Shown here piece by piece: positions 20,115 to 49,895 of a stretch of 64,000 nt of DNA; position 1 is the stretch's first letter; each line of letters opens with the position of its first letter. The notes under the pieces are model-generated. The model saw nothing but the letters and a program-made list of their open reading frames with translations. It searched no databases and was not told where the DNA came from. The translations under genes were made by a program, and so were the position numbers. Origin of the DNA: Treponema sp. (GTDB lineage: Bacteria; Spirochaetota; Spirochaetia; Treponematales; Treponemataceae); the NCBI RefSeq assembly GCF_045657965.1, contig NZ_JAZOUG010000042.1, forward strand, positions 8,210 through 72,209, written 5' to 3'.

Positions 20115-23100
20115 TTACTTCTCGCTCTTCAAGAATACAACATCCATTCGGTCTGTCTGGAAACCGATTGCAGCATCGCAGTCACTTACGGTAACGCCGT
20201 CTTCGCTTACAGAGGAAGACCATTTGCCCTGATAGTTACCTTCTACGTAAGTAAGGTTTCCTCCAACAGCATAGTGGTTTGTCGAATCTTCAACAACAGC
20301 AGGTATAATTTCTGTATCCCAGACAGCAGAAGATTCTGTGCTGTCAACAATTCGCTTAACTGCATACTTAATACCATTGTAAGTCTTAGCCTTGTTAAGA
20401 TAAGAAACACATGGAGTGTTGTCTGTGCCAATTAATGACAAAGTAGGATAAGTACCTGTTGTATCAATTGTCTCGTCAGTTTCAAAAGAATATGCATCGG
20501 CAGTAACTCCAGGTGTTTTTACACCGGCTGTACTTTTTATGTACTTCAAATTGCCTTCATCATCAACATAGACAATATGAAGTACATCGTTTGAATCAAT
20601 CTTCATTGCAACATCTGAACCACCCGCAGCCACATCCTGACGGCGCCATGCAGAAGCAAGAGATGGAGAATCACTATTAGCATAAGCTATGCGAACACAT
20701 TCATTTGCAGAATCGTAGTATGCAATAACAGGACAGCCGGTTGAAGTTACATCCATACTGATTGCACTACCCGCCATACTTGACTGTGTTGAGCCAGTAG
20801 AAACGACATTAGCTTCACCAAAGTACATTGCAACATGAGGACCAGCGTTTGTTGCTGAAGTTGAAACTTTACTGTTATCAAATTTGCTATCTGTCCATGT
20901 CAGATAATAACCACTTGTGTACCATGTGCATGTTGCTGTATGCAGTTCTGTAACATACAGTCCCTGAGTGTTTGTATACATAATTGCAAATGTAACTGTT
21001 GAACCACTTTTGATTTTGTCAGTGTTAGGGAAATCTGTCGTACTTAAACGTGCAGAATTAGTACCCAAATAAGCAGCTGTATTTCCAGGCTTTTCATTAT
21101 AAGTTATTGAATAGCCAACTTTTTCATCATTATTTGCATAATCATAAGTTCCACGGCTATGAACTCTGTCAAGACCATCACTGGTACCATCAATTAAAAC
21201 CCAGCCTGTAATATCAAATTGATTAGCATTAGCAGTTGGAAGTGCTGAAATATTTTCTACTGGCTGATAGGTATAACGCAAAGCCTGATTCTTAATATCA
21301 TAGTATGCAAAATGCATGTTATTGCCAAACCGGGCAGAACGAGGAACATCAAAATGCTCAACTTCACGAGTCATTGCATAACTAGAAAGCTGATATCCTG
21401 ATGTATATTTTTTATCAGCCAGATAATATCGGTTATACAGAATTGAGGCGGTTGTATCAGTTGAAGATTCCATTGCAGCTTCATTACTCAATGCGATACC
21501 GAATGCACCACCACAGTTATTGTAAGCTGCATAACCTGTTGAATTGATTCGACCGGCGTTACCTACATGTGCTGGGAATAACATTACAGCAACTGAGTTA
21601 GCCCCCTGATATCCGTAATAATTTGCAGCTGTACCAGTTTCTGAAGTAGCCTTTTTATCAATTGCAATAAATGACGGGTCCTGAGGCTGGTCATAATTCA
21701 GGAAGATTGATTTACTTGCTACAGTAAGACCTTTTTCAAGCTGAATAGAAGCAGAACCTTTAAGAGACCATGTTGAGAACAAATTACCACTTGCATCAGC
21801 TGCCATTGTAGGCATGTGGCTTAAAGAATCTGTACTTACAAAGCTGTGTCCAACATCATAAACATCAAGATAACGATTGTCATAATAGGTGTATGAACCG
21901 CTGGTTTCATGGTTATCAGTTTGAGAGTTATCATTTTTATGATTCAAACTAAGTATACCGTTAACAGTTACGGTCAACTCTCCAGAGTTAGATGGAACAT
22001 AGAAAGTCATTGTCTTATTATTACTTAAAACAAGTGCATTCTTTGTTCCCAAAAGTTTATCCGAATCTGTTGAAGCTTCAGTTGCTGTAAGTGTTGTTCC
22101 GCCGACAGAAACATAATTAGTAGTATCTGTACTTAAAGGGAAGTTATAACCTGTTACAGTAAGCTGGTCACCTATTGCCACCGGATAGCTTCCATATGTT
22201 GAGCGGTTAGTAATATTTGTACCTGATGTTGACTTGTAGCGACTCTTAGTTGTATCTGTACGAGTTATTCCCGTGATATACGGCACAACATCCACCTGAT
22301 ATGTAGCATAAGGCACAGTTGTTGCAGCACCATTAGTATTTGTTCCGTCGTTTGCGGCTACAGTAAATACAACGTCTGTTGCTGCAATTCCTGCAACATA
22401 GCTTGAATCTACAGTAAGGCTCCAGGTTACTGTATGACCGTCTGTTGTACTGAATTCATTGCCTGTAATTGCAAATGTTAATCCTGTTGCAGGCTGCGTG
22501 ATTGTAAATCCACCTGTTGTAGTGCTGTATGCTGCAACTTTTTTTGTACTTACGGCTGTGCTGTCGAAGTTTTTGCTTGTTGTAAGATAAATCTCACTTA
22601 CACGCTTTTCATCAGTTACAGTTCCAGTAAATGTAACTTCACCTGAAATTTTTGTATCTCTATCAAGATACTTTGTTGCATTTCCGTCTGTAAATACAGA
22701 AGGTAAAGTAGAACTTAATTCAACGTGACCTGCATTTTCTACAGCAGCAGGATCCTGAATTGACGGAACAGGGAATTTGTCATCTGTAAGGTCAATATAA
22801 AGCGGCACATTGATTACAGTGTACTGAGAGCCGAATACAGTATTTCCTTCAGCGTCAACTGAGTCACCAGTACCGGCAGTTGTTCCATTTGTAGAATCCC
22901 AGATTGTAATTCCGATGTTGCTGAGTTTATGTGTGCTTTCAGTTGCTTCAACCCATTCTGTATGACCAGAAATGTCACCTGTTGCAATTTCAAAGCCTTT
23001 AAGGGAACTTGAAACAATTGAAGCAGTTGTTGTTGTATCTGATGTTGTGTCATAGAGAGAAGATGTGCGTGCTGTTACGCTTCCCTTTGTGCCTGCTGTA

Positions 23101-29100: not shown

Positions 29101-30473
29101 TATACAGATGATTCAAGTTTTGAAACAATACTTTCAAGTCCTTCCTTGTAGTCATTATCTTCATCAACTTTGTACATCCACATTGTAAAATCTTTTGGGG
29201 CAACAAGAGTATTGCTGTCAAATGCAGTTATAGTTGCTGACAATTCACTGCTTGTACTGGCCTTTGAAGTAACAAAATCATTATAAACAGGTTTCGTACT
29301 GCTTGCACCTGTGCCGCTTGTCAAAGCATTAACGCTCAGGAAGGTATAAGTCGGTCGTGCTGCAGGGTTAAGTGAGAATGCAAGATGATTTGAAAGCGTA
29401 TCCTTTCCGCACAAATCAAGAAATTCTTTTACGCTCAAGTTTGTATCGTCGGTATACGGGTTTGCAAAACCTAAAGACTGTGCTGTTGTATCAAGAATTG
29501 CATATCTGTCTGTGTACTTTCCGTTCATGTTTCCAATAACACGGGAAGGAGTAAGACCAAGGCTGGTTGTTCCACTTCCCATAAGAACATTATAAACATC
29601 ATCGTACAGATAAGCAGTTGAAGTTGTATTACCGGTTTCTTCACTTGCAGTAGTTTTACCTGCATCCTGCCAGAGATATGCTGTATCAGCAAGTGTTATT
29701 GATGTCTTAAACGATTTTGTTTCGTTTGTAGCTGCAGCAGCTGTCTGTGTATCATTAAGAGTTACAGTTCCATAAATATTTGTATAGTTAGAATAAAGTG
29801 TGTCAGTTCCATTTACAGTGAAGCGGGCAAAATCTATTGCACAACCGTCAGAAACGTCAATTCCTTCGTCAATTTTATAAGTTCCGTTTAAATTTTCACC
29901 ATCATACACTTCAAGAGTCATCTGCGAAACAGAGTGACTTTCACAAACAGTTCCCTGAACCCGAAGAGTTGTACCGTATGCGTAATTAGATGTCAAAGAA
30001 TTTGGTGCAGATACTATAAAAACAGGTGCAGTATTATCGATTTCAAGAGCAAGACTGTAAGGGCCTGTTGAACGGCCGGCATTATCATATACATAGACTT
30101 TTGCAGAATAAGAACCGTCAGGAAGAATATAGTTTCCTTCTGAATCAGCTTCATTTGCTTTATAAATCCATGAAGTTCCATCAGAAACATCAGCAGTATA
30201 GGGTCCATACTGAGAATTTGTAGAAGTATTTGTAAAAGCTACAGTTACTTTTGAAACCTGTTTATCATCATTACAGGTTCCGGCAATATAAAACCAGTCA
30301 CGGATAACTGAACCGTCCGGCGGATAAGAAATTGTTGCGCTTGGTGCTTCCGTATCAACTGAAGAACCTAAACCGGCATCTTCACCACAAGTGGTAAGAA
30401 AAACTGTCGCAAGACCAAGTGCGAACACCTTTGCCAATGAAATTAATTTTTTTTGAAGAACTTTTTTAATCAT
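20115..30473 (-). CDS. Giant lipoprotein 1 (about 3,452 aa): Ig/FN3-like repeat stalk plus C-terminal beta-propeller-like domain; putative surface adhesin
   Basis: Start MIKKV at 30473; lipobox FLTTC followed by GEDAGLGSSVDTEAP; recurring D(N/T)xxP inter-domain linkers and DxAGN motifs; S/T-rich; blade motifs such as PVIAYYD and LHIVYVD near the C-terminus. Confidence 0.85.
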   Translation of the reverse strand: MIKKVLQKKLISLAKVFALGLATVFLTTCGEDAGLGSSVDTEAPSATISYPPDGSVIRDWFYIAGTCNDDKQVSKVTVAFTNTSTNSQYGPYTADVSDGTSWIYKANEADSEGNYILPDGSYSAKVYVYDNAGRSTGPYSLALEIDNTAPVFIVSAPNSLTSNYAYGTTLRVQGTVCESHSVSQMTLEVYDGENLNGTYKIDEGIDVSDGCAIDFARFTVNGTDTLYSNYTNIYGTVTLNDTQTAAAATNETKSFKTSITLADTAYLWQDAGKTTASEETGNTTSTAYLYDDVYNVLMGSGTTSLGLTPSRVIGNMNGKYTDRYAILDTTAQSLGFANPYTDDTNLSVKEFLDLCGKDTLSNHLAFSLNPAARPTYTFLSVNALTSGTGASSTKPVYNDFVTSKASTSSELSATITAFDSNTLVAPKDFTMWMYKVDEDNDYKEGLESIVSKLESSVYGASAAAPSGWTQIGSDSSENSVTSFSLTSNALGSTVKSGSCYIVAVTGNDVAGSNIYHNNVYAFIGTTSGTPPSITIETPEKSQFFKTSADTNLKIKGSVTSENELVSLKATITVLDEDNDETVTDGTTNELTYEKTINGGTSDTFDFKLSDCNGWSSKFAATANSERTYKYSLTVDVTDEGGNTGSISRDFYVDTVSPSVEITSVLPGVEGSDFDGDSSSVNTYVNGTIIVKAGIDDTHLASVYYRILVNGTSAKIYKKGTSDELETDSDGWYTPGKGTSQKIYVDTTKYEDGKSFKVEVKAVDSAGNETIYTTDDYCKSQYFSDDTTNTIYTYTIKQETDAPIITVTNADSTVSTESAVTDENLFDLTTKKALTATIKDDDSISSLVLNIDGEDKLTETITGTKTSYPLNYDLSLLNEGVYPVYIIAQDSTYTETTDSSIQALRKTTSDTFYISIDESVPVLTETSIGTSTQYKNDSFILSGTASDTNGFYGESSNTAVGAVTISYTGTLADSNSTAVSGEFSAVNLTSITTSNGTKTGSWSKEIICGTGTDELKDGSYTFVITVKDAANRETGLTRTVVIDTTEPVISTPAVVTASTTDSAGNIWYKSSELKISGTSSDTYGTGIKQVYYQTSSDGSNWSNSNDFAGTETWSGNVSNLVSATTTIKITAVDNAGNTNTVSCGPYYIDAKEPELTDNSVKAGTSSSDAETTSSYLANGKSDIYVSFEVTDEDGGSGISRIYVLPYEKITDSTATDSNKADYSNGTASFTIAKEKVTQSGAVYARIYDYAGNYTDVNLFTVTVDTTAPTITLNTPTDALKSTDAVDINKTINLSGNAEDGNTLPSDTITALQYSKDQSAWTDAAVSISGNYSFNMTGLDTTALTDETTYYLRAVGTDAAGNTGYSNIVTVFVNQKSDRPILNFTTLTTNANDEYILKLNDAGTVDVTVSDDDSTSSAVVKSVSIQELDASGNAVGSVITPAISASGDFTFASSSTDDGAKYFKFTVVDNEDTEFTSASSTSDYTTIPVLSVKTVAISDSAVASSSFTYKSDNESPVVDNITAVTYKSSGDESVTSEGISAAFVTGGTERENIALTIHASDANGVAGMLVTIAKTDGTTLKYKTTSETTIAGKTIADGYTSAGTFTATSTTGDSTWVLPSLSVAGLDSGSVKITVIPYDNSGLTGNGTFTFTVDNDGPAVNITSPKSYAADSSTQNNGSVTLTGTTTDSNDVTSVSWFIPTLTQQTGWPSLNKESLEWNDESDTVNFTFTGNTLLDNYANSTYTETSGTYSDPSSTYYVIPVYFRAVDEFGNIAYSTDYKILYNPDVDKITTTITNPSNEDALGGTVRMIGSTSISSYASVSLNSVYIQLGSSASFSDTDKTKAGTGTGNYGYTVVSAYDVINEIAGTSYTSSTMTDAIAKRYGFTGKTSLDSWWGIKTTTNAWKLNLNENKELDPTGDGVNTVYLRASAVNSNGKFGDWTDSIYVTINNKAPALTEQLYQFKTSPTASNLSTITASSNVTGEKSYSSDMYVKGQWYLEVTAAEAEGASGSYVKVESVTKDNANLTKGTDYFTTATSGDDTSVKIYIPVDKDSADTVVYKVTAMSKDGLFSSAKTYSINVDNTAPTIKPLYSDKDRTNEISMTKVENSNYKYSVYSTAIDEGSKPDFMAVYFMRDGQLELPLPTINSYTANDSSKVEAGTAYTATTGTSGTLKQITSTEAGEVLYGVSGTVSCAASGENTVITSSSLITTANSFIRRGSLVKLSGSYYAITEVNTTEHTATVNATFATLPTSAFFAAAIAVDSDREGGTTSSGVTTITNDDGDGFAETFDLSGTTLSWALDFFSDELDDGQIDIVVVAADKAGNYSTETTTVMLTNHKPRVSKVFLATDLNGDGKYTDNELGGQAITSSEGGTLSQKYYSALSGSVINSSGELEGSAQEISTLSYKSTEKDSDGNYYGVGFTMRNKLGVALEFVGGKEGNGDLKYQLAVASSTDGILTEPTAGTKGSVTARTSSLYDTTSDTTTTASIVSSSLKGFEIATGDISGHTEWVEATESTHKLSNIGITIWDSTNGTTAGTGDSVDAEGNTVFGSQYTVINVPLYIDLTDDKFPVPSIQDPAAVENAGHVELSSTLPSVFTDGNATKYLDRDTKISGEVTFTGTVTDEKRVSEIYLTTSKNFDSTAVSTKKVAAYSTTTGGFTITQPATGLTFAITGNEFSTTDGHTVTWSLTVDSSYVAGIAATDVVFTVAANDGTNTNGAATTVPYATYQVDVVPYITGITRTDTTKSRYKSTSGTNITNRSTYGSYPVAIGDQLTVTGYNFPLSTDTTNYVSVGGTTLTATEASTDSDKLLGTKNALVLSNNKTMTFYVPSNSGELTVTVNGILSLNHKNDNSQTDNHETSGSYTYYDNRYLDVYDVGHSFVSTDSLSHMPTMAADASGNLFSTWSLKGSASIQLEKGLTVASKSIFLNYDQPQDPSFIAIDKKATSETGTAANYYGYQGANSVAVMLFPAHVGNAGRINSTGYAAYNNCGGAFGIALSNEAAMESSTDTTASILYNRYYLADKKYTSGYQLSSYAMTREVEHFDVPRSARFGNNMHFAYYDIKNQALRYTYQPVENISALPTANANQFDITGWVLIDGTSDGLDRVHSRGTYDYANNDEKVGYSITYNEKPGNTAAYLGTNSARLSTTDFPNTDKIKSGSTVTFAIMYTNTQGLYVTELHTATCTWYTSGYYLTWTDSKFDNSKVSTSATNAGPHVAMYFGEANVVSTGSTQSSMAGSAISMDVTSTGCPVIAYYDSANECVRIAYANSDSPSLASAWRRQDVAAGGSDVAMKIDSNDVLHIVYVDDEGNLKYIKSTAGVKTPGVTADAYSFETDETIDTTGTYPTLSLIGTDNTPCVSYLNKAKTYNGIKYAVKRIVDSTESSAVWDTEIIPAVVEDSTNHYAVGGNLTYVEGNYQGKWSSSVSEDGVTVSDCDAAIGFQTDRMDVVFLKSEK
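30352..30376. repeat. 25-bp exact direct repeat shared by the 5' ends of giants 1 and 3 (other copy 49777-49801)
   Basis: GTATCAACTGAAGAACCTAAACCGG at both sites; a 16-bp identity also occurs at 30317-30332 and 49742-49757. Confidence 0.85.
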
Positions 30474-30561
30474 TTTGCACCCCTGCTTTTTAAGCAAATG
30501 ACAAAAATTACAATTTTATTTGGGGAACATTCTATTGCATTTTTGTAAATGTGATAAGTAT

Positions 30562-30592: not shown

Positions 30593-30650
30593 TGGGTGCA
30601 GGATTCTCAGCAAAATTTTAGATTTTGGAGATTTAGTGAAGGAAAATTAT

Positions 30651-30682
30651 AAAAGAAGCACCTGACTACGAAAATCAGGTGC
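30651..30682 (-). terminator. Terminator of giant lipoprotein 2
   Basis: GCACCTGA/TCAGGTGC stem with an adjacent A-rich run, 15 bp after the stop codon. Confidence 0.75.
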
Positions 30683-30697
30683 CATTAAGATTAAAAG

Positions 30698-36600: not shown

Positions 36601-39600
36601 GTTTAATAATCGGCCGGTCTTTATTCTGGTCAACCGTGTAAGTAAATGTACTTGATGAGCTGTTTCCTGCCGTGTCCGTTACAAATGAAACAATGTAGAA
36701 AGAAGCTGTCGGACTTGCTTCTGTAACGCCTGAAAGAGTGTAAACATCAATATCGTCAAAAGTCCAGCTGTAAATCTTTGAAGAATCAGTGAATGCACCG
36801 ATTTTTGTCATAGAAGAAACATCCGGCGTTGAAGAAGGAGCTGTTAACGAATAATAAAGAGCAAGAGAATCAGGAGTTGCACCGGTGTAAGTTGTCTGGC
36901 CGCTTATTGAAACTGTTCCGTTAATTGTTGAAAGCTGAGAAGGAGTCGTAACTGAAACAGAAGGAGCAGATGTATCTTTCTGAAGCTGGAAGATTGTGCT
37001 TGAGCTTGAGTTTCCTGCAGTATCTTTTACAGTTGCATTTACGTTCATGCTGCCGTCAGAAAGAGCCGAAAGCAGAGCAGAAGAAATTTCTGCACTCCAT
37101 GTGCTTGTTTTATTTGTAGAAGAGCTGTCAATAATTTCTGTAACAGAAGCTTCAACCGAACTTGTTCCGATTTTAAGCGTAACAGATGCAATTCCAGAAA
37201 CATTGTCTGAAGAAGAACCTGTTACAGAAATTGAAGATTCTCCGTTTGTGTACTGAGTTCCGCTCTTGTCTGAACTTAAGCTCGGGCTTTCAGTATCAAT
37301 ATTAATTTCGATAACCTGGGCAGAACCTGCATTTCCTACATTGTCTACGGCAACAAGATAAAGATAATTTGGTGTAACTGTAGAACCGGAAATTGTTGAA
37401 GCAGTAAATGAACCTAAAACCTGATTTGTAAAATAAGAAATTCCATTTTCGCTGTCGTTTGTAACAGAGAATGAACCGTCAGCTTCAGTAAAATCTGATG
37501 TGTCAGGAACAGAAGAATCAGGATTCTGAACCCAATAGTAAACACTTGAAACACCACAGCCTTCTTCAACAAAACAGCCACTTACCGGAAGAGAACTGTC
37601 TTTATACCAGCTTTCACTGTCGTAAGATGCTTTATTAAGCTTAAACGGATGAGAGGTGTTTGATTCTGTCCATGCAGGTTTAGTTGTATCAAATTCAACT
37701 TCGTAAGTTTCTGAAACATCATTTCCTGCTTTATCACAGGCTTTTACAGTAAGAACAACATCGCTTGCAGAAGACTGTGTGCCGAATTCTGACAAATCAA
37801 CGCCGGTAAATGACCAGCTGATTGAAGAAGATGTACCTGTAACTGTTTTTGCTTTTCCGCTCGAATCTACGCCGGTAAATGTATAAGTTGTGCTTCCGAC
37901 AATGTAGTTGTCTGTTGTTGTTCCGGAAAGTGTAAATACTGCATTGTTGTTAATGTAAATAATGTCGCTTAATGTGTAACCTGTAGAGATTGCAACATTT
38001 GAGATTGCCGGATTTGTTGTATCAAGATAGAAAGAACGGAGTTTTGAAGAAGTTCCGCCGCCGTTCGTTGCAGAGACAGTAACATCAACAGTATAAAGAC
38101 CGCTTCCACTTGAAATCAAAGACTGCATTTCAGAATTTGCTGCAAATGTGAAGTTCCAGTTGTAAGTGTATTCAGATGAAGAAGAATCTAATTCAAGGCT
38201 AAGAGAACCTGTCGCTGTTTTTGATGATGAAGATTCCGTATCAGCAAGAACAACAGTATAACCGCTTGAAGTAAGTTCTTCTGAAGAGTAAACAGTTCCA
38301 CTGAAGCCGAATGTACCGCCTGTAATAACAGATTTTGTAATTGCACTTGAACTTGAAAGATTTACATTTCCGGCCGTATCACCAAATGTAATTGTCGGAA
38401 CAGTAGAATTTGATTTTGCCATAAAGCCGTAGCCGGCAGAATCCCCTTCAACTATTGCCTGTGAATCAATATCATAACCTTCGATGCTGAATTTGTATTC
38501 TTTACCTGTAGAAATTTCAGCGTTAGAAGAAGAAAGGCTTGATGTAACAGAAAGAGCATCAGTATTTTCATCGCTTGTTGTTACTGTATATCTGTATGCA
38601 GAAGGATTTGCAGTTACATTTGCAAGGGCAGTTGTTTTGTCGCAGTTATCTTTTGCCATTGCGTACTTAACAGCAGTCTCTTCGTCCCATGTCCAGAAAA
38701 GCTGTTTTTCAGAAGAAGCATCTGTAACATTTGTGTAATAGACAGAAATTGTACTTGTATCAAGATTTGTATTATCAAGACCAGGAGCAATCGAAACATT
38801 AATAGTAGAATCAGAATAATACAGGAAATATCCGTTTGATGAATAAGAATCTGAAGCGCCGCCTTCTGTGATTGTAAGACCGCTGACAGTATAAGTAGGA
38901 TTATTTTCCGGATTAATTGTGAAATTCAGATATACATCCTGAGAATCGCCTGAAGATGAAGTTGTAGAAGTATTTTCGATACTTTCTGAAATTGGATTGT
39001 CATCTGAAACGCTCTGATATGTCCCGTCAGAAGAAAGTACTGTAGAAACTGTACTTTTACTTACAGATTCATCAAGAATTTCCTGAAGCTCCGTGTTTCC
39101 AGAATATGTGCTGTCTGTACCGTTAAGATATGTACGGAGTGTAGAAACTGTGAAATTTTCAAAACTTGATTTTTTGCCGTTAATAAGCTGAAGCATGTCT
39201 GTAGTACCGCGGTAATATGTTGTCGTAGAATTACCGTTTCCTTCGCCGGAGTCGCTTGAATCCTTATAAACTTTAGCTTCATCGTTTGCAGTTACAGTAA
39301 AATAAAATTCTTTTGTAGTAACAGACTGACCGTTTCTGAAAAGTGCAATATTATCTTCACCAATGAGTGCTTTATAGTTCTGCCATTTTTCGTAATTTTC
39401 TGAAGAGACATCCGGTTCGTTATTTTCATCATAATACTGAGCAATTACAAGAGAATTTGCGTTTGACATATCAGTAATACCTGAAAATTCACTGTCAAAA
39501 AGTTTATTACCTTCTGCATCATAAAAACTTACGGTAAGTCCTGAAATTCCTGATGAACAGCTTTCAGAAAAAGTTCCTTCAAGAAGAACTGTCTGCCCAT

Positions 39601-40114: not shown

Positions 40115-40201
40115 AGACAACTCCTGTAACTTTAGCAGGGTAAAACTTTTTTTCTTATCTTAAGTTATATTCGGTTGAAAACAAGGGCGGAATTTTAATA
40201 C

Positions 40202-40266: not shown

Positions 40267-40301
40267 AAAAAAAGCCCTGGAGAGAATAAACTCAACAGGG
40301 C
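40267..40301 (-). terminator. Terminator of giant lipoprotein 3
   Basis: GCCCTG..GAG/CTC..CAGGGC stem with an A7 run (U7 on the minus strand). Confidence 0.75.
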
Positions 40302-40322
40302 CGAAAATTATAAGAAAGGCGG

Positions 40323-43300
40323 TTACTGCATCTGGGCGGTTTCGATATAGCCGGTGGAAGCGTTCTCGATTCCATAACCCAAGATTGGGTTTGCAGTGCC
40401 GTTACCAAGAATTACACCGCTGTCCGTAACTCCCGTACTTGCTGTCAAACTGCTGCTTGAAGCCGTTATTTTTGACGGAACTGCAGTATATGTTGCATCT
40501 GTACTTGTTGTTTTCCAAACACCGACATTTACATAGTCATCATTTACAGAACTTGATGTCGGAACCAGACTGATTTCCCACACCTGTGTAAATGCATCAT
40601 CGGAAGCACCTGCCTTGCTTGAAGTACTTGCAATAGAAGCAGAACCTGCCCAATAAGCTACTTTTGGTCGTACAGAACTTCCTGCATAGTAACCAATATA
40701 TGGAACTGAATTATTGTTTGAATCAAGTGCAACATCCAATGAAAGCTGAGTTCCAATAATACCGTTTGAATCTACAACACAAGTTGAAGTTGAACCATTG
40801 TAACTCGTTTTATATGCATAACAGACATCGCCATTGATAGCGTCATAAGCAACCATGTGGATTCCTCCATTTGCATCGACAGCAACTTTACAATACTTAC
40901 CTACGCCAGTATCACTGAAAATTTGCTCTGGTTCAGACCATTGTGAACGCTGATAATCTCCAGCTGCAATAGAGTTAGGTGTCAGGGTGTATGAATACCA
41001 CATAACCTGATTTGTCGAATCATACCAGACAACAGCAACAAGATCATCTCCGTCTGTACCGGCGCCTTCAAGAGCTGCAAGATGTACATATTCACCAGCA
41101 TAGTAGCCTGTACTTGTAGAAGCATATTCAGCTGAATAGCTTGTAGAACCAATAGCACTTGTTGTCTTATTCGTTACAGAATCTTCTGTAACTTCTGAAG
41201 GACTAGAACCGTATTTGAGACCATCCACATAGCTTGATCCACTCTTAATTGCAATAGCCCGGTTAGATTCCCCAGATTGTCCTGCAATCAAAGAGGTATA
41301 TTTCAGTGTATATGGCTGTGGAATTTTATTAACAAATTCTGAGGTTCCCCCCCAGCGGCCATATACATCAGAGAAGAATCCTGAATTATCAGTTCTAGAT
41401 GTTGCACCGAAATTTCCTCTCGTAAAACGAATTTCTCCATTTATTGCATCGTAATATGCAAGATACACATTTGTGGTGTTGTCAGAGGTTTTAATTGTCG
41501 TTGCAATTGACGGAGATTTAATTCGTTCCTTATTAATATTTGCATACGATGAGTAAGAAGAATCTGTAATTGTCCAGTCTTTCTGTCCAATATTTTCCAA
41601 ACGGAATTGATTTGTACCGTCATTGTAGCCACCAACAGTTGCAAGAGCTGTTCCCCAGCGGCTTGTCATAATACGGAACTGGTCAAATGTTGTTGCATCC
41701 GTGCCACTTGAAGGGGTTCCGCCTACATCACCACCAGCTGTTGTTCCATAAGAATATCCTAAACGGTCATATGCAAATCCTACAGAAGTAAAGAAGTCGA
41801 TTCCTCCAATCCAATACTGATATGAATTACTCGTATTACCCATACTAAAATAAAGAGGACCGTTTACGAATGCAAAACCTACCTGCCCGTTTGCCTGATT
41901 AATGCTCATGACCGGCTGACTTATTGTACCACCATTATATGTAGCCGCAGCCTTGCTGTTTATCGCCCACACATCCAGCACAACATCATCTGTAAGCAGG
42001 TTGTTTGAGTCGCCGTTTGGCTGGCGGTTGTAGTAGTTTGCGTATGCTTCGCTTGAACCGGTTGTGCCGATTGTTCCACTGTAAGTGTAGGCACCTGTTG
42101 CATCGTCACTGTTCAGGTTATTAAGAGACTGAACGCTGTTTACTGTTACATACACACCGCCGCTTGTAAAGCTTGAAACGTCTGCCGTATAGACAGCTGT
42201 GTTCGTGCTGGTTGCAAAGAAGTTTGCTGTAGTTCCGCTGCTTGAAGTTGAGTACCAGCTCTGGCTGCTTGCAACATCTTCTGTAAGTGTACTTGAAGCA
42301 GGAGTGCTTGCACTGTCATACAAAGTTCCGCCTGTTAAGTTAAAGCCGTAAAGGTACACTGTATCTGCGCTGCCTGTCGGATAGTGGCCGAGTGCTGTGC
42401 GGTCGTAAACTGAGCTGTTTGCCTTTTTGAGGCTTGAAAGACTTGTCTTTACGCCTGCAATGTACGGAACTATGTCCATTTTGTAGTACGGTGTTGTTGC
42501 TGCGCTTGTCGTCTGGATTGTTGAGCTTGCAGAAGTAAGGTCAGAAGCTGCCTGTGTTTTTGAAGCCCAGTCTGTCGCACTTGATTCAACTGCAACTGCC
42601 TTTGCCGCTACATTTGCGTGCTTTTCAGTGTCGAGGTAGAGTGTCCATGTAACTGTGTGACCGCTCTGACTTACACTGTCAGAATTGATTTCAAACTGCC
42701 AGCCGTCTGTTGCAATTGCACCGCCTGCAGTTGAGCTTTCAGAACCAGAAGTTAAAGCCCATGAAGTTCCATCGTAGGTTGCAAAAGTCAGGGCATTTCC
42801 TGCCGTTCCGCCGTTAAAGCTGAATCCTGCTGCTTTAAGTGCAATGGTATGAAGCATTTTATTATCATAAGCACTTCCGGTAATCTTAACTTTTCCGGAA
42901 ACTTTCGGGCTGTCAGAATCATAAAGCGCTTTTATTCCACTTGAAAGATCGTTTTCAAGTTCAATATGACCGTTTGATGTTGAATTGTTATACAGGCTGT
43001 TATCTTCCGCACTTGTCCAGTAGAACGGATTAATTGCCGTAACAGGAACAGTTGTATCAGCAAGATTTATAATCAGATCACTTACATAAGCTGTACAATA
43101 CTGACTGTTATTTCCTGCCGTGCGTTCTTCAGTTTCATCCCAGAAAGTAAATGAAACGCCTTCGCCTGCAGTTTTATCTGATGAATCAGAAGCTGTATCA
43201 GCCCAAACCTGCGAACTTGAAAGAGTATATGCATAAAGACTGTCGCCGCCAATTACAGAAAGACCTGTTACAGAATACGGACTTGTCGAAATGTTTGCAG

Positions 43301-46300
43301 TTTCAGCAGTAGAAGCCGTTGTAACACTTGCCGCAGCACTTATCAGTGTGCTGTCGTCTGTTGTGCCTGTTACTGCTGTAGTATCGCTTGCACCACGTTT
43401 GTAGACCATGTAAACGCTGCCATTACCGCCTGTTATTTCCGGAACAACAGCAAGCTTATCTTTTGCTGTAAACTGGCCGGCTTCATAATCTGCTGTTGCA
43501 ATACTTGCAGCTGATTTATATCCAGTCGTTGAAACACCGGCAGTTTCATTTGCCGTGTAGACATCATACTGACTGAATTCTTCTGATGCAAATGAATTAT
43601 CTGAATTTAAGTCAGTTCCAAGATAAAGTTTTGCAAGCCGCGGTGCATTATTTTCAATGCTGACCGGATATGTTGCCCCGCTTACATTTCCTGCAGCATC
43701 ATAAGCAAGAACTACAAGGTAAGCAGGTCCGTCAGGAATATTTGTAGAGTGAATTGTAGCTTTCCATGTCCATGTTGTGCTTACATTTGAAATACTTTCC
43801 GGCATCAAATCTCCGTCATCTCCGCTTGAGAATGTAAACGGATTTGCCGTTGTGCTTGAAACATCTTCTGTACTTGTATTATCAACACTCTGGGCATAAG
43901 GGAAATAAACTGTTGTAGCTCCCGAAGGATCAGCGTCCATAGTGAAGGTAACTGTGCTGCCTGTAACATCAGTAATTTTTCCATATTCGCCGCTGATGTA
44001 GATTAAACCGCCTGCATGAACATGTCCGTTACCGCTGACAGCACCAGAATTATCAGTAAAACTGTAATAAGTTGTACCATCAGTTACAGAACTTGTAATT
44101 GAACCTGATGTCACTGCCTTTAATGCATAAATTGTGTAGTCATTTTCAACTGTAATTGCTTCAAGTCCACTTATGAGAGCCTTTGAATCATCTGTAGAAC
44201 TCCAGTCCGTTACAAGCGGATCCAGAATATAGTTTTTTCCAAATGAATTTGTACTGCCGTAAATTTTACCGTTACGCATGAAGTAGAAAAGTACACGCTC
44301 ATAGCCGGAACCTGTATCTTTTACTGTGCCGCTGATTGTGTAAACATAGTTGCTTTCTGATACAGCATTTTCTGCATTTACAGAAAGTTCATCGCCGTTT
44401 CCGCTTATTGCGCTTAAAGACGGTGCTGTGTTATCAATATAGAATGTGTAGGTTCCAGTTGAAGAATGGCCGCCAACGTCTTCTGCATAAACTGTATAGC
44501 TTACAGAAGATGTTGTCATGCTGGCAGTTTCAATAGGAATATAGAGTGTATTTGTAACTCCTGAACTGTTAGACAAATCTATTTCAGAAGAAGCATAGAA
44601 TGTTGCAGATGCAGAACCACGCTTTACTTTAATTGTATTGTAAACAAGAGAGTCGTTATCACTCAAAGTAACAACAAGATACCAGGTGCCTTTCAAATAC
44701 ATTTCTGAAGCATAATCTTTACTTACAGTCATGTAATCATCAGTATTCTGAAGATTAACAAGATTTTCTGTGGCAGAAGAGAAATCATACTGCCTCATTA
44801 AAGCAGTCTGGCTCGGAGCACTTGAATCTACGTGAATGTAATATGTATCTGACCAGTTACCCATTTTACCGTCTGCATTGATTGCACATGCCCGCACGGC
44901 AATATCAGTAGTAGCATCGCTTGAAGACGGATTAAGATTACTGTCTGAATTAAGGGAAATATTCCATGTGGCTGTTTTTGTTGTTGCAGCAATTCCCCAC
45001 CAGTCATCATCAACATAAGTCGTTGTTCCATAAGCTGCAGTCAAATCAGATTTTGAAAGAGTTCCGCCCAATGTCGTAAATTCATCAGCAAATTCTGAAG
45101 AAGACCAGGTTACAGTTCCGTCGGAAGCAGGTTTTCCAATCTGAATATAAACTTTGCCGACATCAACCGTGCCTGAAGGAACTTCTACAGTACCACTAAC
45201 ACGTATTGTACCTGAAAGGGTAATGTATGAATAATCATAATTTTCTGTATCACAGTCAGAATCGTAATCGCTTTCTGTCGGATAACTGAATTCTGTTACA
45301 GGCCGGTCTGCATCCGGGTTGTGAGTAATGTAATAATCACGATAAATATACTCATTTCCAAGTTCATCTGTTGTCCTGAAGAAGATTGGAATTTTATACG
45401 TCTGCGCTGTACTGTTATATGTAACATCATAAGCATTTTCATCGTCATAAGCTGTCAAATCTGTTATTGAACCGCTCGTGAATTTAAATTTAAAGACAGA
45501 AGCACTTCCATTGTTGTTGGAACTTGTCCAGCCGTCAAGTTCACTGAGCTGTGAGTCTGATTTGTAATTGATAGAAGAAGAATCTGTTTCGCCGAAGCCT
45601 GCCGGCGGAATAAGCCATTCAATGTTTGAAATTCCGATTCCTGAATCACTTGCAGTTCCGGTAATTGTTGCAGTTCCGGTAATTTCATCAGTTGAAGAAG
45701 GACTTGTTACTGTAATTGTATCCGGACCTGTATTATCTACAGAGAAGTTAAATGTCTTTGTACTTGTATTTCCTGCAGAATCAGTTACGGTCAGTGTTGC
45801 AATTTTTGTTCCTGTAGCAACACCGGTTGAAATAAGCGGATAAGACTTATAATAATAAGCCCCGGAAACTGAAGAACTTTCTACAGTTGTTAAAATAAAT
45901 TCAGCACCATTTGAAGAACTGAAAACAGCCGGTGTTACTGCCCCATTATCGTCATCATAATAACCATAACCGTTTTCTTCTGTGCTGCTGTCATCTGAAT
46001 CGGCAAAACTGATTTTTACAGAAGCTATTCCATTTTCATCATAAACAGGAACATAAAGCCTGAAATATTTTGAATCTCCGCCGGTATATTGTTTTGCACT
46101 GATTGCATAATCTGCTGAAGCACTGTTTACAGCAGCTGGAGTTGCAAGGCTTCCTGTACTTTCTGCAATAGAAATACCCATCTGCCCGACATTCGGAGAA
46201 GCTGTATCTTTTCTGATTGAAAGCGAAGAACTGCAGTCATTGTTTGTTGAAGAATCAAATGTATAATACGGGCGGACAAACTGACTTGCTGCCGCTCCGG

Positions 46301-49300
46301 TTGTAAAGGTTGTTCCTTCAGTATCTGTGACTTTGAAATAAAGACTAACAGTTCCGTCACCGACTTCACTTAAATCAAATGCCCAGCTTCCACTGGCTGC
46401 TACAGTAACATCAGTATAGTTTGTACCGTCGGTTGAAATTGCAAATGAACTGATTCCATCATCATCACTTACTGAACCACGCAAAGTTGAAGCAGTAAGA
46501 TAATCATCTGCACTTTCAATACTTGTAATCTGAATAACCGGACGGTCTGTATTTCTGTCAACAATTACATTTTCAACTGCATACCCGGAATTTCCTGCAG
46601 CATCAACTGCAACCGCCTTAATGTAAAGATTTACAGTTTCCGTAGAAGAATCAGCTTTTAAAGAAAGCGAATTGTTCACAGCTGTTACAATTGCCGTTGA
46701 AGAAGAGAATGTCTGTTCAAAAGACCAGGTAACACTTGAATCAGAAGTTGTCGTGCTGTCACTTTCGCTGGAAAGCTGATACCAGGTGTCTGCTGCATCT
46801 GCTTCAGGCTGGCTGTCTGCAATTGCATAGTAAAGTTTTATTGAAGATAAAGTTCCATCAGCAGTTCCTGAAGATTTTGTAGTTTCACTCAGAAAATCTC
46901 TTGCAGTTCCAGTAATTGTAACTTCACCGTTAATTTTATTGTCCGAATCTGCACCGGTTGACTTGAAAACAACAACAGGGGAAGTTGTATCAGTATTCAA
47001 GGTGAATGCTGTAATTTTTGCAGAATTTCCGGCTATGTCACTTACTTTAAGAATTATGTTTCCTGTTCCAAGGGATTCAGCCTTTACATAAAGCGACCAG
47101 TCATAAGTTCCGTCTGAATTTGCTGTATCAGAAATACTTACGCCTTCTGTTGAAAAATCACCTGCTGTATAACTGGTAAGCTTTTCTGTTCCCTGTAAAA
47201 TAGTTATTGTATCAACCCCGGAACTTATATCACTGCAGGTTCCTGTGAGTTTCATATAATTTTCGCCGTTTGTAAGAACAGTTCCAGAAGCACTTTGACC
47301 GGTTGTATCATCTGAACCAAAATAAACTGTAGAAGCAGTAACTTCCGGATCATCTTCGTCAAACTGAACAGTACAGGTTGAAGGAACAGAAGCATTTCCT
47401 GCCTTATCAACAGCAACGAGATAAAGTGTATTTGAGCCGGCTTCAAAACCGCTTACAGTTGTACTGAATTTGGATTTATAATTTTTTGAAGAATCTTTGG
47501 CTGCCACAAATGAACCGTTTGCCGTAGAATAATCTGAAGTAGAAGGAGCAGTACCTGAAGCAGTCTGAATCCAGTAGTAAATTTCATCAATTCCACTGCC
47601 GTTAGAGCTTTCACCGTCATAATATTCTTCATAATAACCGAGAAGTTTTTGTGCTGAATTACTGAACCATTCCGAATCCTGTTCAACTAAATCAACTGTA
47701 TTGAAATCTTCATCTGTGGCTGAACCGCCGATAAACATTTTGCCGCCGACTTTAAGCGCATACAATGACGGTGCTTTTGAATCAAGATAAAAAGTAAATG
47801 TTTCTGAATCACTTAAACTCTGTGAATTTTGAGCTGTGACCGTAACCACATAAGTGTACATTCCGCTTGCTGCCGGATACAGAGAACCTTCCGGATTTTC
47901 AGAATTAATATTTACGTTCCATAAAACTTTTGATGTACTTGCGGTCTGTGCATCTGAAGCAGAGGTATAAACAGTAGAATCTGAAGAATTGTCACTGCTG
48001 TAAGTAATTGTAAATGACGGAGAAAGACTTGTAATTTCTGTGCCGCTTGTATCACCGCCTTCATAAATTTTAACAGTTGCAGAAATGGCATTTGAAGCCC
48101 ATAAGCCGTCTTCATCAACCATTGTTCCGCTTATCGTATATCCGTTTCCATTATTGTAAAATGTGGACTCATTTAAATAATCTCCTGAATCACTTGTGAT
48201 TCTGATTGTCGGAGCGGTACCGGAAGTTGCTGCTAAAAATCCGTAGTTTATAAGGTCATACGCTACATATTCATTTCCATCGCGGTCTTCACCTTCAAGC
48301 GCAAACATGTAAGGAATACCTGCCGTAGTACCGGAAATTGAAAAATCTTTTGTAGCCGACTCATTCGTAGAAGAATCAGTCCAGTCTCCTTTGTTGAAAA
48401 TATATGTCCATTCAGAAGGTTCCTGCCAGTAATAAGTTGTTTCAGTTCCGGCACATGAATAATAACCGTCTGTCGTTTCCGGTCTGGTTGTCGTTAATTC
48501 AACTGCTCCATATTTTAAAGCAACTGCCTGTGGTGCAACATATGAGCCGTCTGCATTTGGTGTAATTGTAAGCCCTAAATTTTGTCCGCTTGTATAAGAA
48601 CGGAATCCATTGGCTTTGGCATAAGTATTATTATCTGTACCAAGTGAATATGAAGCGATTTTCCAGGTCGGATAATTATCCGGATCAAGACAAAATATAT
48701 TTGCAGAAGTTGTAATTACACTTTCAATGTCTGTAACAGTAATTTTATTGCCACTGGCATCGTAAGAATATCTGCCGTCAGAATCATACTGATAAATATC
48801 ACAGTCAATATAATTTCCCTGAGAAGCCAGTGCCTGTAAAATAGCCGTGCACTCATCAGAACCGGTTGTATATGTGGCCGAAGTTCCGTTTAAAACTTCA
48901 CGGATATCTTTAATTTTGATGTCATCACTGATTGCATTAAGGGAAGCAGAAAGAGAATCTGTATTAAGATAATACCGCTTTGTAGAATTTCCTGCATTCA
49001 CAACTTTTGAAAGATTTTTATCCTGATAAACGCAGGCTTCATCAGTAAGAACAAATCCTGCATAGAAATATTTTGTGACATTCGGATCTGTATCAGGATC
49101 TGTTTCCGTATCAACAGTTCCATAAATCTGCTCATAGCGGTTCTGGCTTTCCTGCTGCGAATCGGAAAGTCCTGCAGTTCCGTAATATTTTGCGACTACA
49201 AGCGGAGAATCTGAAGACATTGAAGTAACTGACAGATTTTCAAATTGAATTAACGAAGAAAGTTCATCTTCAGAATGAGAAGCGGCCGATGCATCATAAG

Positions 49301-49895
49301 AAGCATCCTGCCGTGCTAAAAGAGTGAGTGTATAACTGTGTTCTTCCGAAACATCACCGGTAAGTTTTAAAGTACGGCCGTAAGAAGTCGCAGTTTCATC
49401 ACCAAAAGCAAGAGGCTTTGTCAAAAGAAGAACAGGAGGCGTATTATCAATATCAAAAGAAACAGAGGCCGTACTTGAAGTTCTGCCGGCTCCGTCAGTT
49501 GCAACTGCATCTACAGAGTATGTGCCGTCAGGAAATTCATAACCGTTTGTTGCACTGTATGCAGAAGAATCATAAGAATTTAATTCAATATACCAGGTAC
49601 CAGAAGAATTAACTGAAGCGTTTCCTGAATAAACCTGAGTGTTTGTTGTTTTATTTGTGACCGTAACAGCAACAGATGAAACGCTTTTATCGTCAGACCA
49701 TGAACCGCCCAGAATAAATGTGTCCCGGACAACAGCTGCTGCCGGCGGATAAGAAATACTGACTTTTGGAGATTCTGTATCAACTGAAGAACCTAAACCG
49801 GATTCTTCACCACAGGAAATAAGTGCAGAAATTACTGCAGTAACCAAAACTGCAGAACGCATTTTTTTTAATAATAAGTCCACTGTATTTTTCAT
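40323..49895 (-). CDS. Giant lipoprotein 3 (3,190 aa), paralog of giants 1 and 2
   Basis: GGAGG RBS, lipobox LISC-GEESGLGSSVDTESP; same architecture as giants 1 and 2. Confidence 0.85.
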   Translation of the reverse strand: MKNTVDLLLKKMRSAVLVTAVISALISCGEESGLGSSVDTESPKVSISYPPAAAVVRDTFILGGSWSDDKSVSSVAVTVTNKTTNTQVYSGNASVNSSGTWYIELNSYDSSAYSATNGYEFPDGTYSVDAVATDGAGRTSSTASVSFDIDNTPPVLLLTKPLAFGDETATSYGRTLKLTGDVSEEHSYTLTLLARQDASYDASAASHSEDELSSLIQFENLSVTSMSSDSPLVVAKYYGTAGLSDSQQESQNRYEQIYGTVDTETDPDTDPNVTKYFYAGFVLTDEACVYQDKNLSKVVNAGNSTKRYYLNTDSLSASLNAISDDIKIKDIREVLNGTSATYTTGSDECTAILQALASQGNYIDCDIYQYDSDGRYSYDASGNKITVTDIESVITTSANIFCLDPDNYPTWKIASYSLGTDNNTYAKANGFRSYTSGQNLGLTITPNADGSYVAPQAVALKYGAVELTTTRPETTDGYYSCAGTETTYYWQEPSEWTYIFNKGDWTDSSTNESATKDFSISGTTAGIPYMFALEGEDRDGNEYVAYDLINYGFLAATSGTAPTIRITSDSGDYLNESTFYNNGNGYTISGTMVDEDGLWASNAISATVKIYEGGDTSGTEITSLSPSFTITYSSDNSSDSTVYTSASDAQTASTSKVLWNVNINSENPEGSLYPAASGMYTYVVTVTAQNSQSLSDSETFTFYLDSKAPSLYALKVGGKMFIGGSATDEDFNTVDLVEQDSEWFSNSAQKLLGYYEEYYDGESSNGSGIDEIYYWIQTASGTAPSTSDYSTANGSFVAAKDSSKNYKSKFSTTVSGFEAGSNTLYLVAVDKAGNASVPSTCTVQFDEDDPEVTASTVYFGSDDTTGQSASGTVLTNGENYMKLTGTCSDISSGVDTITILQGTEKLTSYTAGDFSTEGVSISDTANSDGTYDWSLYVKAESLGTGNIILKVSDIAGNSAKITAFTLNTDTTSPVVVFKSTGADSDNKINGEVTITGTARDFLSETTKSSGTADGTLSSIKLYYAIADSQPEADAADTWYQLSSESDSTTTSDSSVTWSFEQTFSSSTAIVTAVNNSLSLKADSSTETVNLYIKAVAVDAAGNSGYAVENVIVDRNTDRPVIQITSIESADDYLTASTLRGSVSDDDGISSFAISTDGTNYTDVTVAASGSWAFDLSEVGDGTVSLYFKVTDTEGTTFTTGAAASQFVRPYYTFDSSTNNDCSSSLSIRKDTASPNVGQMGISIAESTGSLATPAAVNSASADYAISAKQYTGGDSKYFRLYVPVYDENGIASVKISFADSDDSSTEENGYGYYDDDNGAVTPAVFSSSNGAEFILTTVESSSVSGAYYYKSYPLISTGVATGTKIATLTVTDSAGNTSTKTFNFSVDNTGPDTITVTSPSSTDEITGTATITGTASDSGIGISNIEWLIPPAGFGETDSSSINYKSDSQLSELDGWTSSNNNGSASVFKFKFTSGSITDLTAYDDENAYDVTYNSTAQTYKIPIFFRTTDELGNEYIYRDYYITHNPDADRPVTEFSYPTESDYDSDCDTENYDYSYITLSGTIRVSGTVEVPSGTVDVGKVYIQIGKPASDGTVTWSSSEFADEFTTLGGTLSKSDLTAAYGTTTYVDDDWWGIAATTKTATWNISLNSDSNLNPSSSDATTDIAVRACAINADGKMGNWSDTYYIHVDSSAPSQTALMRQYDFSSATENLVNLQNTDDYMTVSKDYASEMYLKGTWYLVVTLSDNDSLVYNTIKVKRGSASATFYASSEIDLSNSSGVTNTLYIPIETASMTTSSVSYTVYAEDVGGHSSTGTYTFYIDNTAPSLSAISGNGDELSVNAENAVSESNYVYTISGTVKDTGSGYERVLFYFMRNGKIYGSTNSFGKNYILDPLVTDWSSTDDSKALISGLEAITVENDYTIYALKAVTSGSITSSVTDGTTYYSFTDNSGAVSGNGHVHAGGLIYISGEYGKITDVTGSTVTFTMDADPSGATTVYFPYAQSVDNTSTEDVSSTTANPFTFSSGDDGDLMPESISNVSTTWTWKATIHSTNIPDGPAYLVVLAYDAAGNVSGATYPVSIENNAPRLAKLYLGTDLNSDNSFASEEFSQYDVYTANETAGVSTTGYKSAASIATADYEAGQFTAKDKLAVVPEITGGNGSVYMVYKRGASDTTAVTGTTDDSTLISAAASVTTASTAETANISTSPYSVTGLSVIGGDSLYAYTLSSSQVWADTASDSSDKTAGEGVSFTFWDETEERTAGNNSQYCTAYVSDLIINLADTTVPVTAINPFYWTSAEDNSLYNNSTSNGHIELENDLSSGIKALYDSDSPKVSGKVKITGSAYDNKMLHTIALKAAGFSFNGGTAGNALTFATYDGTSWALTSGSESSTAGGAIATDGWQFEINSDSVSQSGHTVTWTLYLDTEKHANVAAKAVAVESSATDWASKTQAASDLTSASSTIQTTSAATTPYYKMDIVPYIAGVKTSLSSLKKANSSVYDRTALGHYPTGSADTVYLYGFNLTGGTLYDSASTPASSTLTEDVASSQSWYSTSSSGTTANFFATSTNTAVYTADVSSFTSGGVYVTVNSVQSLNNLNSDDATGAYTYSGTIGTTGSSEAYANYYNRQPNGDSNNLLTDDVVLDVWAINSKAAATYNGGTISQPVMSINQANGQVGFAFVNGPLYFSMGNTSNSYQYWIGGIDFFTSVGFAYDRLGYSYGTTAGGDVGGTPSSGTDATTFDQFRIMTSRWGTALATVGGYNDGTNQFRLENIGQKDWTITDSSYSSYANINKERIKSPSIATTIKTSDNTTNVYLAYYDAINGEIRFTRGNFGATSRTDNSGFFSDVYGRWGGTSEFVNKIPQPYTLKYTSLIAGQSGESNRAIAIKSGSSYVDGLKYGSSPSEVTEDSVTNKTTSAIGSTSYSAEYASTSTGYYAGEYVHLAALEGAGTDGDDLVAVVWYDSTNQVMWYSYTLTPNSIAAGDYQRSQWSEPEQIFSDTGVGKYCKVAVDANGGIHMVAYDAINGDVCYAYKTSYNGSTSTCVVDSNGIIGTQLSLDVALDSNNNSVPYIGYYAGSSVRPKVAYWAGSASIASTSSKAGASDDAFTQVWEISLVPTSSSVNDDYVNVGVWKTTSTDATYTAVPSKITASSSSLTASTGVTDSGVILGNGTANPILGYGIENASTGYIETAQMQ

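Follow-up and report, generated by a model that had tools for sequence, protein, structure and literature searches.

Among described proteins, those closest to the locus considered here include the Leptospira lipoproteins LigA and LigB, spirochaetal proteins in which an N-terminal lipobox is followed by immunoglobulin (Ig)-like domains and for which a surface binding role has been proposed. The Lig proteins comprise ~1,200-1,900 amino acids (aa) and contain near-identical Big_2 repeats, with LigB carrying in addition a non-repeat C-terminal domain. Giant adhesins of the RTX/type I secretion system (T1SS) kind (SiiE, LapA, MpIBP and Bap-like proteins) are very large, acidic and Ig-rich, and are built as a stalk with a distal ligand-binding region; the SusE/SusF and SGBP-B lipoproteins of Bacteroidota combine a lipid anchor, an Ig-like spacer and distal beta-rich binding domains, and belong to the gut polysaccharide niche; and the attachment proteins of paramyxoviruses carry a sialidase-fold head upon a stalk. 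Here we describe three giant genes in a 64,000-nucleotide stretch of DNA (the window) from Treponema sp. (RefSeq assembly GCF_045657965.1, contig NZ_JAZOUG010000042.1, positions 8,210 to 72,209), the products of which resemble each of these systems in part. The genes are termed A, B and C in order of transcription. With moderate confidence, we favour a reading in which their products are long lipid-anchored binding fibres with alternative propeller heads, probably exposed at the cell surface; location, shape, binding activity and ligand are properties that we infer.

Three giant genes in tandem

The minus strand of the window carries three consecutive head-to-tail open reading frames (ORFs), listed at 40323-49895, 30698-40120 and 20115-30497. 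Read from the ATG codons at 49895, 40114 and 30473, these encode proteins of 3,190 (A), 3,138 (B) and 3,452 aa (C), lengths equal to those of the database gene calls P0005, P0004 and P0006, respectively, which were recovered as self-matches in an exhaustive search. The mechanical ORF start of gene B is a TTG two codons 5' of the ATG at 40114. Features of the three genes, including the assignment of their heads to the classes defined below, are as follows.

40323-49895, minus strand: gene A, predicted giant lipoprotein; 3,190 aa, mature ~335 kDa, isoelectric point (pI) 4.1, class I propeller head
30698-40114, minus strand: gene B, predicted giant lipoprotein; 3,138 aa from ATG 40114, class III propeller head
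20115-30473, minus strand: gene C, predicted giant lipoprotein; 3,452 aa from ATG 30473, class II propeller head
49903-49907, minus strand: Shine-Dalgarno site of A, GGAGG, read from the sequence
40121-40125, minus strand: Shine-Dalgarno site of B, AGGAG, read from the sequence
30480-30484, minus strand: Shine-Dalgarno site of C, AGGGG, read from the sequence
40267-40302, minus strand: terminator-like hairpin with U7, 3' of A; -16.8 kcal/mol, z-score -4.7
30648-30683, minus strand: terminator-like hairpin with U-rich tail, 3' of B; -16.9 kcal/mol, z-score -4.95
20055-20084, minus strand: hairpin with weak U tail, 3' of C, from folding and sequence

The mature chains have computed masses of 330-364 kDa and pI values of 4.1-4.3, and are rich in Ser and Thr (26-29% together) as well as in Tyr, Asn, Asp and Gly. 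A first-pass annotation of the window, made from its letters and ORF translations, had described three head-to-tail giant genes for S/T-rich proteins, each with its own ribosome-binding site and terminator, and this description is borne out by the ORFs and database gene calls, by the composition, and by the Shine-Dalgarno sites and hairpins with U-runs (z-scores -3.6 to -5.0 across the three). DNA of the window was also found in goat and sheep gut metagenomes, as low-depth contig scraps from DNA runs that were too sparse for strains to be compared.

A family of giant proteins in gut treponemes

The distribution of related proteins, which the first-pass annotation had proposed as a check, was examined with HMMER: a hidden Markov model (HMM) covering 711 positions from the N-terminus was compared exhaustively with a set of 1.84 billion representative proteins. 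This search returned 3,102 matches at E<=1e-3 and, at E<=1e-30, at least 469 clusters at 50% identity, with A, B and C at the top. Of the best 150 matches, 118 are at least 3,000 aa in length, the longest reaching 7,610 aa, and most align from their own N-terminus. Relatives that have been named are called only "hypothetical protein" or "Ig-like domain-containing protein" and are ascribed to Treponema sp.; a scan of one genome per species located 14 loci, all in Treponema/Spirochaetaceae from rumen or gut, three of them in the cultured Treponema ruminis RU1. Named members and genome loci alike fall in Treponema/Spirochaetaceae, in support of a Treponema origin of the array. No mention of the family was found in the literature searched, which included the T. 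ruminis genome paper.

As judged from sequence, A, B and C belong to a large uncharacterised family of giant predicted lipoproteins of gut and rumen Treponema. The traits by which we would recognise the family are the motif Cys-x(0-10)-GLGxxVDTxxP, a first Ig domain, colinear modules and a C-terminal IPT-like domain with a putative propeller, each of which can be assigned to all three proteins.

A word-index protein search found no match with the N-terminal 613 aa and only three fragments with a 15-sequence profile, missing nearly all of the family and even the self-matches. Giant S/T-rich proteins seem to be a blind spot of indexed search, in which candidate selection is probably swamped.

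A predicted lipid anchor and first Ig-like domain

All three proteins begin with a basic and then hydrophobic signal peptide, ending ...ALISC in A, ...SIVSC in B and ...FLTTC in C, with LISC, IVSC and LTTC as the respective lipoboxes. Directly after the lipobox stands GEESGLGSSVDTESP, GEDSGLGSSVDTEAP or GEDAGLGSSVDTEAP, conforming to the pattern GE(D/E)xGLGSSVDTExP; the lipobox Cys and this pattern, as originally reported, are present in every one of the three. A Cys followed by GLGxxVD occurs in 148 of 155 family sequences, with position -1 mostly Ser, and the Cys itself is conserved in 147-148 of the 155. A, B and C are accordingly classed, by prediction, as lipoprotein precursors of the Sec/signal peptidase II type, and the N-terminal lipid anchor that had been proposed for them is supported by signal peptide and lipobox. 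The corresponding segments are listed below.

49812-49895, minus strand: signal peptide and lipobox of A, residues 1-28, ...ALISC, with Cys28 the predicted lipidation site
40031-40114, minus strand: signal peptide and lipobox of B, residues 1-28, ...SIVSC
30387-30473, minus strand: signal peptide and lipobox of C, residues 1-29, ...FLTTC
49440-49811, minus strand: short conserved tether (GEESGLGSS) together with the first Ig-like domain of A; residues 29-152, IDNTPP at the end
~39653-40030, minus strand: equivalent tether and first Ig-like domain of B
30006-30386, minus strand: equivalent tether and first Ig-like domain of C

The tether between the lipid and the first Ig-like domain is very short (~9 residues). 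In A this domain matches Pfam Big_13 with 29.6 bits (cut-off 27), a match to Big_7 being sub-threshold, and the family profile of the domain, when compared with the PDB, identifies the BIg domains of SiiE (2yn3, E 1.2e-10). At the DNA level the segment encoding tether and first Ig-like domain is 78-85% identical among A, B and C, the best three-way similarity in the array.

Ig-like domains and unique modules of the body

BLAST identifies no internal repeats in A, B or C, and the domain-junction motif xDxTxP occurs in 7-9 copies per protein. An Ig HMM that took the first Ig domain as its seed, with iterations across the 155 family proteins, detects 9 Ig-like domains in A and 11 each in B and C, against a family mean of ~13.5. 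The stalk of 20 or more Ig or FN3 units that had been proposed on the basis of linker counts is not borne out by these numbers. Pfam and NCBIfam matches of the three proteins and their relatives are of Ig type only (Big_13, Big_7, DUF4625 and Ca_tandemer) and lie mostly below curated thresholds.

Between the Ig domains lie unique, conserved beta-rich modules, located in A at residues 153-530, ~1520-1700 and 2126-2330, for which no Pfam or PDB sequence match was obtained. PDB searches started from A in full, from four regional profiles of the family and from a profile of 15 full-length sequences; SiiE BIg was the sole meaningful match, and weak matches to antibody constant domains confirm only the Ig-like character of the body. 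Aligned family members are colinear with A from residue 1 to residue 2560. Within this alignment, the length of residues 1380-2560 is constant across the family, and residues 700-1400 form an expandable segment, occupying 700 aa in A as against 1,100-1,900 aa in other members. The constant part includes the following conserved core.

44796-45740, minus strand: conserved core of A, residues 1386-1700; Ig-like domain and unique module, with HNPDADRP and WWGI motifs

Certain family members, P0069 (with its cluster P0154-P0156), P0127 and P0113, span 5,900-7,600 aa and contain up to 22 matched stretches of the N-terminal profile, so that the stalk can more than double in length through added domains.

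A, B and C are colinear paralogues in which shared landmarks occur in the same order, as the first-pass annotation had stated. Its description of the body as a stalk needs amendment: the long body is indeed rich in beta structure, composed of many domains and provided with a distinct module at its distal end, but in place of a repeat stalk it consists of unique modules in fixed order and ~10 Ig-like domains.

Predicted propeller heads of three classes

With E values of 1e-45 to 1e-80, the last ~630 aa of A find counterparts in relatives belonging to other species, and the match invariably extends to the final residue of the relative. When the last 600 aa of 119 full-length members were clustered, three classes emerged, class I with 89, class II with 16 and class III with 11 sequences; A belongs to the first, B to the third and C to the second. 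The three classes are mutually homologous (hhalign profile-profile probability 99.7-100%, at 20-24% identity), and the motifs MD(V/I)VPYI and SLNN.N, found just upstream, are common to all of them; class I heads end in a conserved GYIETAQM(K/R). The heads are positioned as follows.

40326-42488, minus strand: head of A, class I; IPT-like from residue 2470 (MDIVPYI), beta-propeller ~2620-3190, ending GYIETAQMQ
30701-32575, minus strand: head of B, class III; from residue 2514, MDVVPYI
20118-22304, minus strand: head of C, class II; from ~residue 2724, VDVVPYI

Structural assignment of the head (propeller length ~570 aa) rests on an AlphaFold2 (AF2) model of A residues 2429-3190, built from an 18-sequence alignment, with a predicted template modelling (TM) score of 0.72 and a predicted local distance difference test score (pLDDT) above 85 over much of the C-terminal third. 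Comparison of this model with the PDB using Foldseek gave, first, GH33 sialidases and a pseudaminidase (E 1e-7 to 1e-6, probability 1.0), followed by PL24 ulvan lyases and GH43 arabinofuranosidases, with Plasmodium CyRPA and the H proteins of measles and distemper viruses also among the matches. Self-comparison of the C-terminal half of the A propeller detects a repeat at an offset of ~69 positions (probability 92%). In our reading of the MDVVPYI...GFNL pattern and of the strands of the model, rather than from any database match, an IPT-like Ig domain would precede the propeller.

These structural relatives raise the possibility that the head is a glycan-cleaving enzyme, such that each protein would be a surface-tethered sialidase-, lyase- or GH43-like propeller on a stalk, and the classes would differ in substrate. 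Nearly all of the top Foldseek matches are indeed carbohydrate-active propellers (GH33, PL24 and GH43), many charged residues (R2624, D2636/2637, D2723, R2791, D2816, H3013, D3042 and E3107) are retained by 90% or more of 30 class I heads, and rumen treponemes live on plant polysaccharide. However, sialidase Asp-boxes (S-x-D-x-G-x-T-W) average only 0.05 per head in the last 650 aa of 119 family members, with none in A, B or C, and a regular-expression scan of the same regions located no F/Y-R-I-P (RIP) motif. Furthermore, no head has a Pfam, NCBIfam or PDB sequence match, the TM-scores of the structural matches are modest, and the same fold is used by the non-enzymatic binders CyRPA and measles virus H that appear amongst those matches. 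On this balance we regard a catalytic head as unlikely, and a binding head as the preferred interpretation.

The C-termini of A, B and C are indeed divergent, as initially noted, showing ~16-26% identity to each other, although they prove to be homologous and each is conserved across species. The notion of alternative tips is correspondingly retained in the sense of distinct heads, but since these heads are homologous and conserved in three classes, the tips are not locally diversifying ends. The model and alignments are best described by a single conserved propeller head existing in three ancient classes that are shared across many species, with the window holding one of each.

Divergence of the paralogues and exchange of modules

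End to end, A and B are 34% identical and C is ~25% identical to both, values by which we class the paralogues as old. Similarity is unevenly spread: in a central core (A residues ~1386-1850) A and B share 55-77% identity, versus 20-35% elsewhere.

43896-45758 (A) and 34055-35863 (B): central core pair

Comparison with relatives, including P0008 and P0007, which come from the same metagenome-assembled genome and have heads of class III and class I, respectively, yields conflicting affinities. For the N2 module (residues 153-530), B is 54-58% identical to P0008 and P0007, and A only 25-28% identical to all proteins compared. In the core (residues 1386-1700), identities are 69-71% for A-B, 62% for A-P0007, 61% for B-P0007 and only 34% for B-P0008; and for the IPT-like domain and propeller, respectively, they are 76% and 84% for B-P0022, 76% and 50% for B-P0008, 44% and 53% for A-P0007, and 31% and 26% for A-B. 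Because such identities conflict over hundreds of residues, modules appear to have been exchanged among family members; amongst the relatives too, N2 module, core and head each have different nearest neighbours, which indicates that the family is a mosaic. Recent gene conversion between A and B in the core was considered as a separate explanation of the similarity there, and was rejected, DNA identity being 63-77% in this region and identity at third codon positions not being raised. Within the array such exchange is neither recent nor still under way, the highest DNA identity between A and B being 75-83%.

The tandem order of paralogues whose C-termini differ, together with module affinities that imply past recombination, might alternatively be taken to denote a polymorphic toxin system or one for antigenic or phase variation, the copies then serving as recombination donors or bearing variable effector ends. 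Searches of the array nevertheless found neither silent cassettes nor promoters flanked by inverted repeats, and no near-identical segments among the genes, for which the best inter-gene DNA repeats reach 71-85% identity; no long homopolymer tract was seen at the gene starts. Each of the three genes is intact and has start signals of its own; their C-termini are conserved cross-species propellers rather than toxin domains; and no small immunity-like genes follow them, each gene being succeeded by a terminator and then by the next giant gene or an unrelated one. An active variation or toxin system is therefore, in our assessment, very improbable. From the polymorphic system suggested by the first-pass annotation, what survives is the old mosaic of modules, in the absence of near-identical cassettes, invertible promoters or recent gene conversion.

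Genomic context

Array neighbours include pyrF, a periplasmic binding protein, two adenylate cyclases, an NlpC/P60 hydrolase, a LolA homologue, an ABC-F-like ATPase, a methyl-accepting chemotaxis protein and a TRAP transporter. No components of T1SS, two-partner or autotransporter systems are present among these neighbours in the window, which are genes of housekeeping, sensing and transport, and the first-pass annotation was correct in this respect. The only nearby ABC protein (18184-19755) has two ABC_tran domains without a transmembrane-domain match, and looks ABC-F-like. Neither near the array nor beside the relatives were genes for an ABC transporter, membrane fusion protein or TolC found, and no gene for a TonB-dependent receptor or SusD-like protein occurs in the window or beside the relatives. 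The closest relatives (P0022, P0010 and P0007) are solitary genes amid unrelated housekeeping genes; given these unrelated contexts, a dedicated partner or export gene appears not to be required.

Tandem arrangement recurs elsewhere in the family. Tandem pairs are present at loci L001 and L004-L007, where the family gene is preceded by the end of a second giant ORF of like orientation; these upstream ORFs have class I heads in L004 and L005, and those of L006 and L007 match class I weakly. Several Treponema genomes, that of T. ruminis RU1 included, have immediately upstream of the giant gene a gene for a conserved protein of ~1,735 aa with Ig-like domains and a signal peptide without lipobox, positioned as follows.

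L002, 4513-9717: ~1,735-aa protein
L010, 4533-9755: ~1,735-aa protein
L014, 4571-9775: ~1,735-aa protein
L009, 4562-9737: ~1,735-aa protein (split)

As a required partner this protein was rejected, since it is absent from the window and from the loci of the closest relatives; one sub-group of the family may have it as a partner.

Several other genes of the window deserve mention. The LolA-family lipoprotein carrier homologue (208 aa, 59481-60107, minus strand) lies directly upstream of a 783-aa ORF without Pfam match (57114-59465, minus strand), the pair being situated ~7-10 kb from the start of gene A. This homologue could be relevant to the trafficking of large lipoproteins, and is probably a housekeeping gene. 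A 1,008-aa protein (52188-55214, minus strand) contains Reg_prop and Y_Y_Y sensor repeats and a C-terminal adenylate/guanylate cyclase domain; Reg_prop/Y_Y_Y repeats are typical of the hybrid two-component glycan sensors of Bacteroides. The 3' end of its gene is overlapped by 17 bp by the start of a Peripla_BP_5 gene (50981-52204, minus strand), and a second cyclase gene is located at 60544-62898. Between gene C and the ABC-F-like gene there is an ORF for a hydrophobic peptide of ~45 aa (~19850-19988, minus strand) with its own strong terminator (19763-19784). ORFs without Pfam match also encode proteins of 672 aa (13238-15256, plus strand) and 217 aa (56464-57117, plus strand).

Proposed mode of action

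In the reading that we prefer, each precursor would be exported by Sec, cut by signal peptidase II and lipidated on Cys28 or Cys29. Beyond the ~9-residue tether, the chain would run through a colinear series of ~10 Ig-like domains and several unique beta-rich modules to end in the IPT-like domain and ~570-aa propeller head. Such an acidic chain of 330-360 kDa could form a long, surface-exposed fibre anchored by its N-terminus in the outer membrane, and would hold the head away from the cell, where it may bind a ligand. Given the relatives of the fold and the rumen niche, this ligand would most plausibly be a glycan, carried by plant fibre, by mucus or by another microbe. The tandem genes, each transcribed separately, would supply one head of each family-wide class and hence three binding specificities, the diversity of which would have arisen by old exchange of modules between family members rather than through an active variation system.

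A number of observations weigh against this proposal. Structurally, the AF2 head model is of medium quality (mean pLDDT 63), its Foldseek matches have target-normalised TM-scores of only 0.35-0.54 and identities of 8-10%, and an AF2 model of A residues 1229-2428, made from a 3-sequence alignment, was unusable (pLDDT 36); about two thirds of each protein have no reliable fold assignment. Since most of the nearest folds are those of enzymes, a catalytic function of the head is conceivable in place of a binding one. With regard to expression, no RNA sequencing run among those searched contained window sequence. Finally, exposure at the surface is an assumption, many lipoproteins of Treponema being periplasmic; and, in the light of work on Borrelia, the G-E-D/E stretch of acidic character that follows the Cys could act as a retention signal.

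The last two points, together with the lack of export machinery encoded nearby, favour an alternative in which the proteins are not surface-exposed. Against this, ~3,200 aa with ~10 Ig-like domains and a distal head would be hard to fit within a narrow periplasm; member lengths of ~3,000-7,600 aa, varying through one expandable segment, follow a reach-out pattern rather than that of a structural part of fixed spacing; and SiiE, whose Ig domains the present ones resemble, is a surface adhesin. We consequently think it quite unlikely that these proteins are confined within the cell envelope, and retain the surface fibre as the preferred reading.

A more ambitious formulation would have these proteins constitute a new class of surface fibre: chains of 330-800 kDa held by an N-terminal lipid only, flipped across the outer membrane without a locus-encoded partner, equipped with three interchangeable classes of sialidase-fold head and serving gut treponemes as their principal organs of attachment to glycans or fibre. 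We consider this rather unlikely. If true, the family would offer a cargo both extreme and tractable with which to address the still unsolved transport of spirochaete lipoproteins to the surface; if the proteins are instead periplasmic or enzymatic, the family still represents a sizeable tract of uncharted protein space.

Significance

Treponemes are abundant and fibre-associated in ruminant and other gut communities, and their surface biology is almost unknown. The family described here consists of hundreds of divergent clusters, often with several copies per genome at ~10 kb of coding DNA each, and for most of its length has no Pfam model, solved structure or mention in the literature. Annotators gain a handle in its architecture, with a predicted lipid anchor, modules in fixed order and propeller heads that fall into three classes. 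Family members are candidate attachment or glycan-capture organs of rumen treponemes, and may constitute a very large natural substrate with which to study surface export of spirochaete lipoproteins.

Comparison with known systems

Of the systems considered at the outset, the Lig proteins share with A, B and C a spirochaetal origin and the succession of lipobox and Ig-like domains, and the C-terminal domain of LigB invites comparison with the heads. The present proteins differ in their size (3,100-3,450 aa, and up to 7,600 aa within the family), in their many unique modules and in the beta-propeller head; neither A, B and C nor 15 relatives contain a match to Big_2 (PF02368), and A, B and C show no sequence-level repeats. 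The RTX giant adhesins are comparable in size, acidity, Ig content and overall layout, but A, B and C would be anchored by an N-terminal lipid in place of a retention module, and their export is predicted to begin via Sec and signal peptidase II; an RTX GGxGxD motif, a C-terminal T1SS signal and a HemolysinCabind match were found in none of the three.

With SusE/SusF and SGBP-B the proteins have in common the order of lipid anchor, Ig-like region and distal beta-rich domain as well as the gut niche, and there is a weak match of the family to the Bacteroidota lipoprotein domain DUF4625. In contrast to SusE/F, they are ten times larger, lie outside SusC/D-type loci and end in a propeller head rather than a CBM-like sandwich. 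Lastly, the six-bladed propellers of sialidase fold (GH33, paramyxovirus H/HN and Plasmodium CyRPA) provide the best structural matches to the modelled head, and the stalk-and-head layout of the paramyxovirus attachment proteins is like that proposed here; the head of A differs from these propellers in its low similarity (8-10% identity, TM-scores 0.35-0.54) and in being without Asp-boxes and RIP motif. Taken together, these comparisons place A, B and C, by prediction, among the giant Ig-rich bacterial surface proteins, and set them apart within that group by lipid anchoring at such a size, a non-repetitive order of modules and three classes of head.

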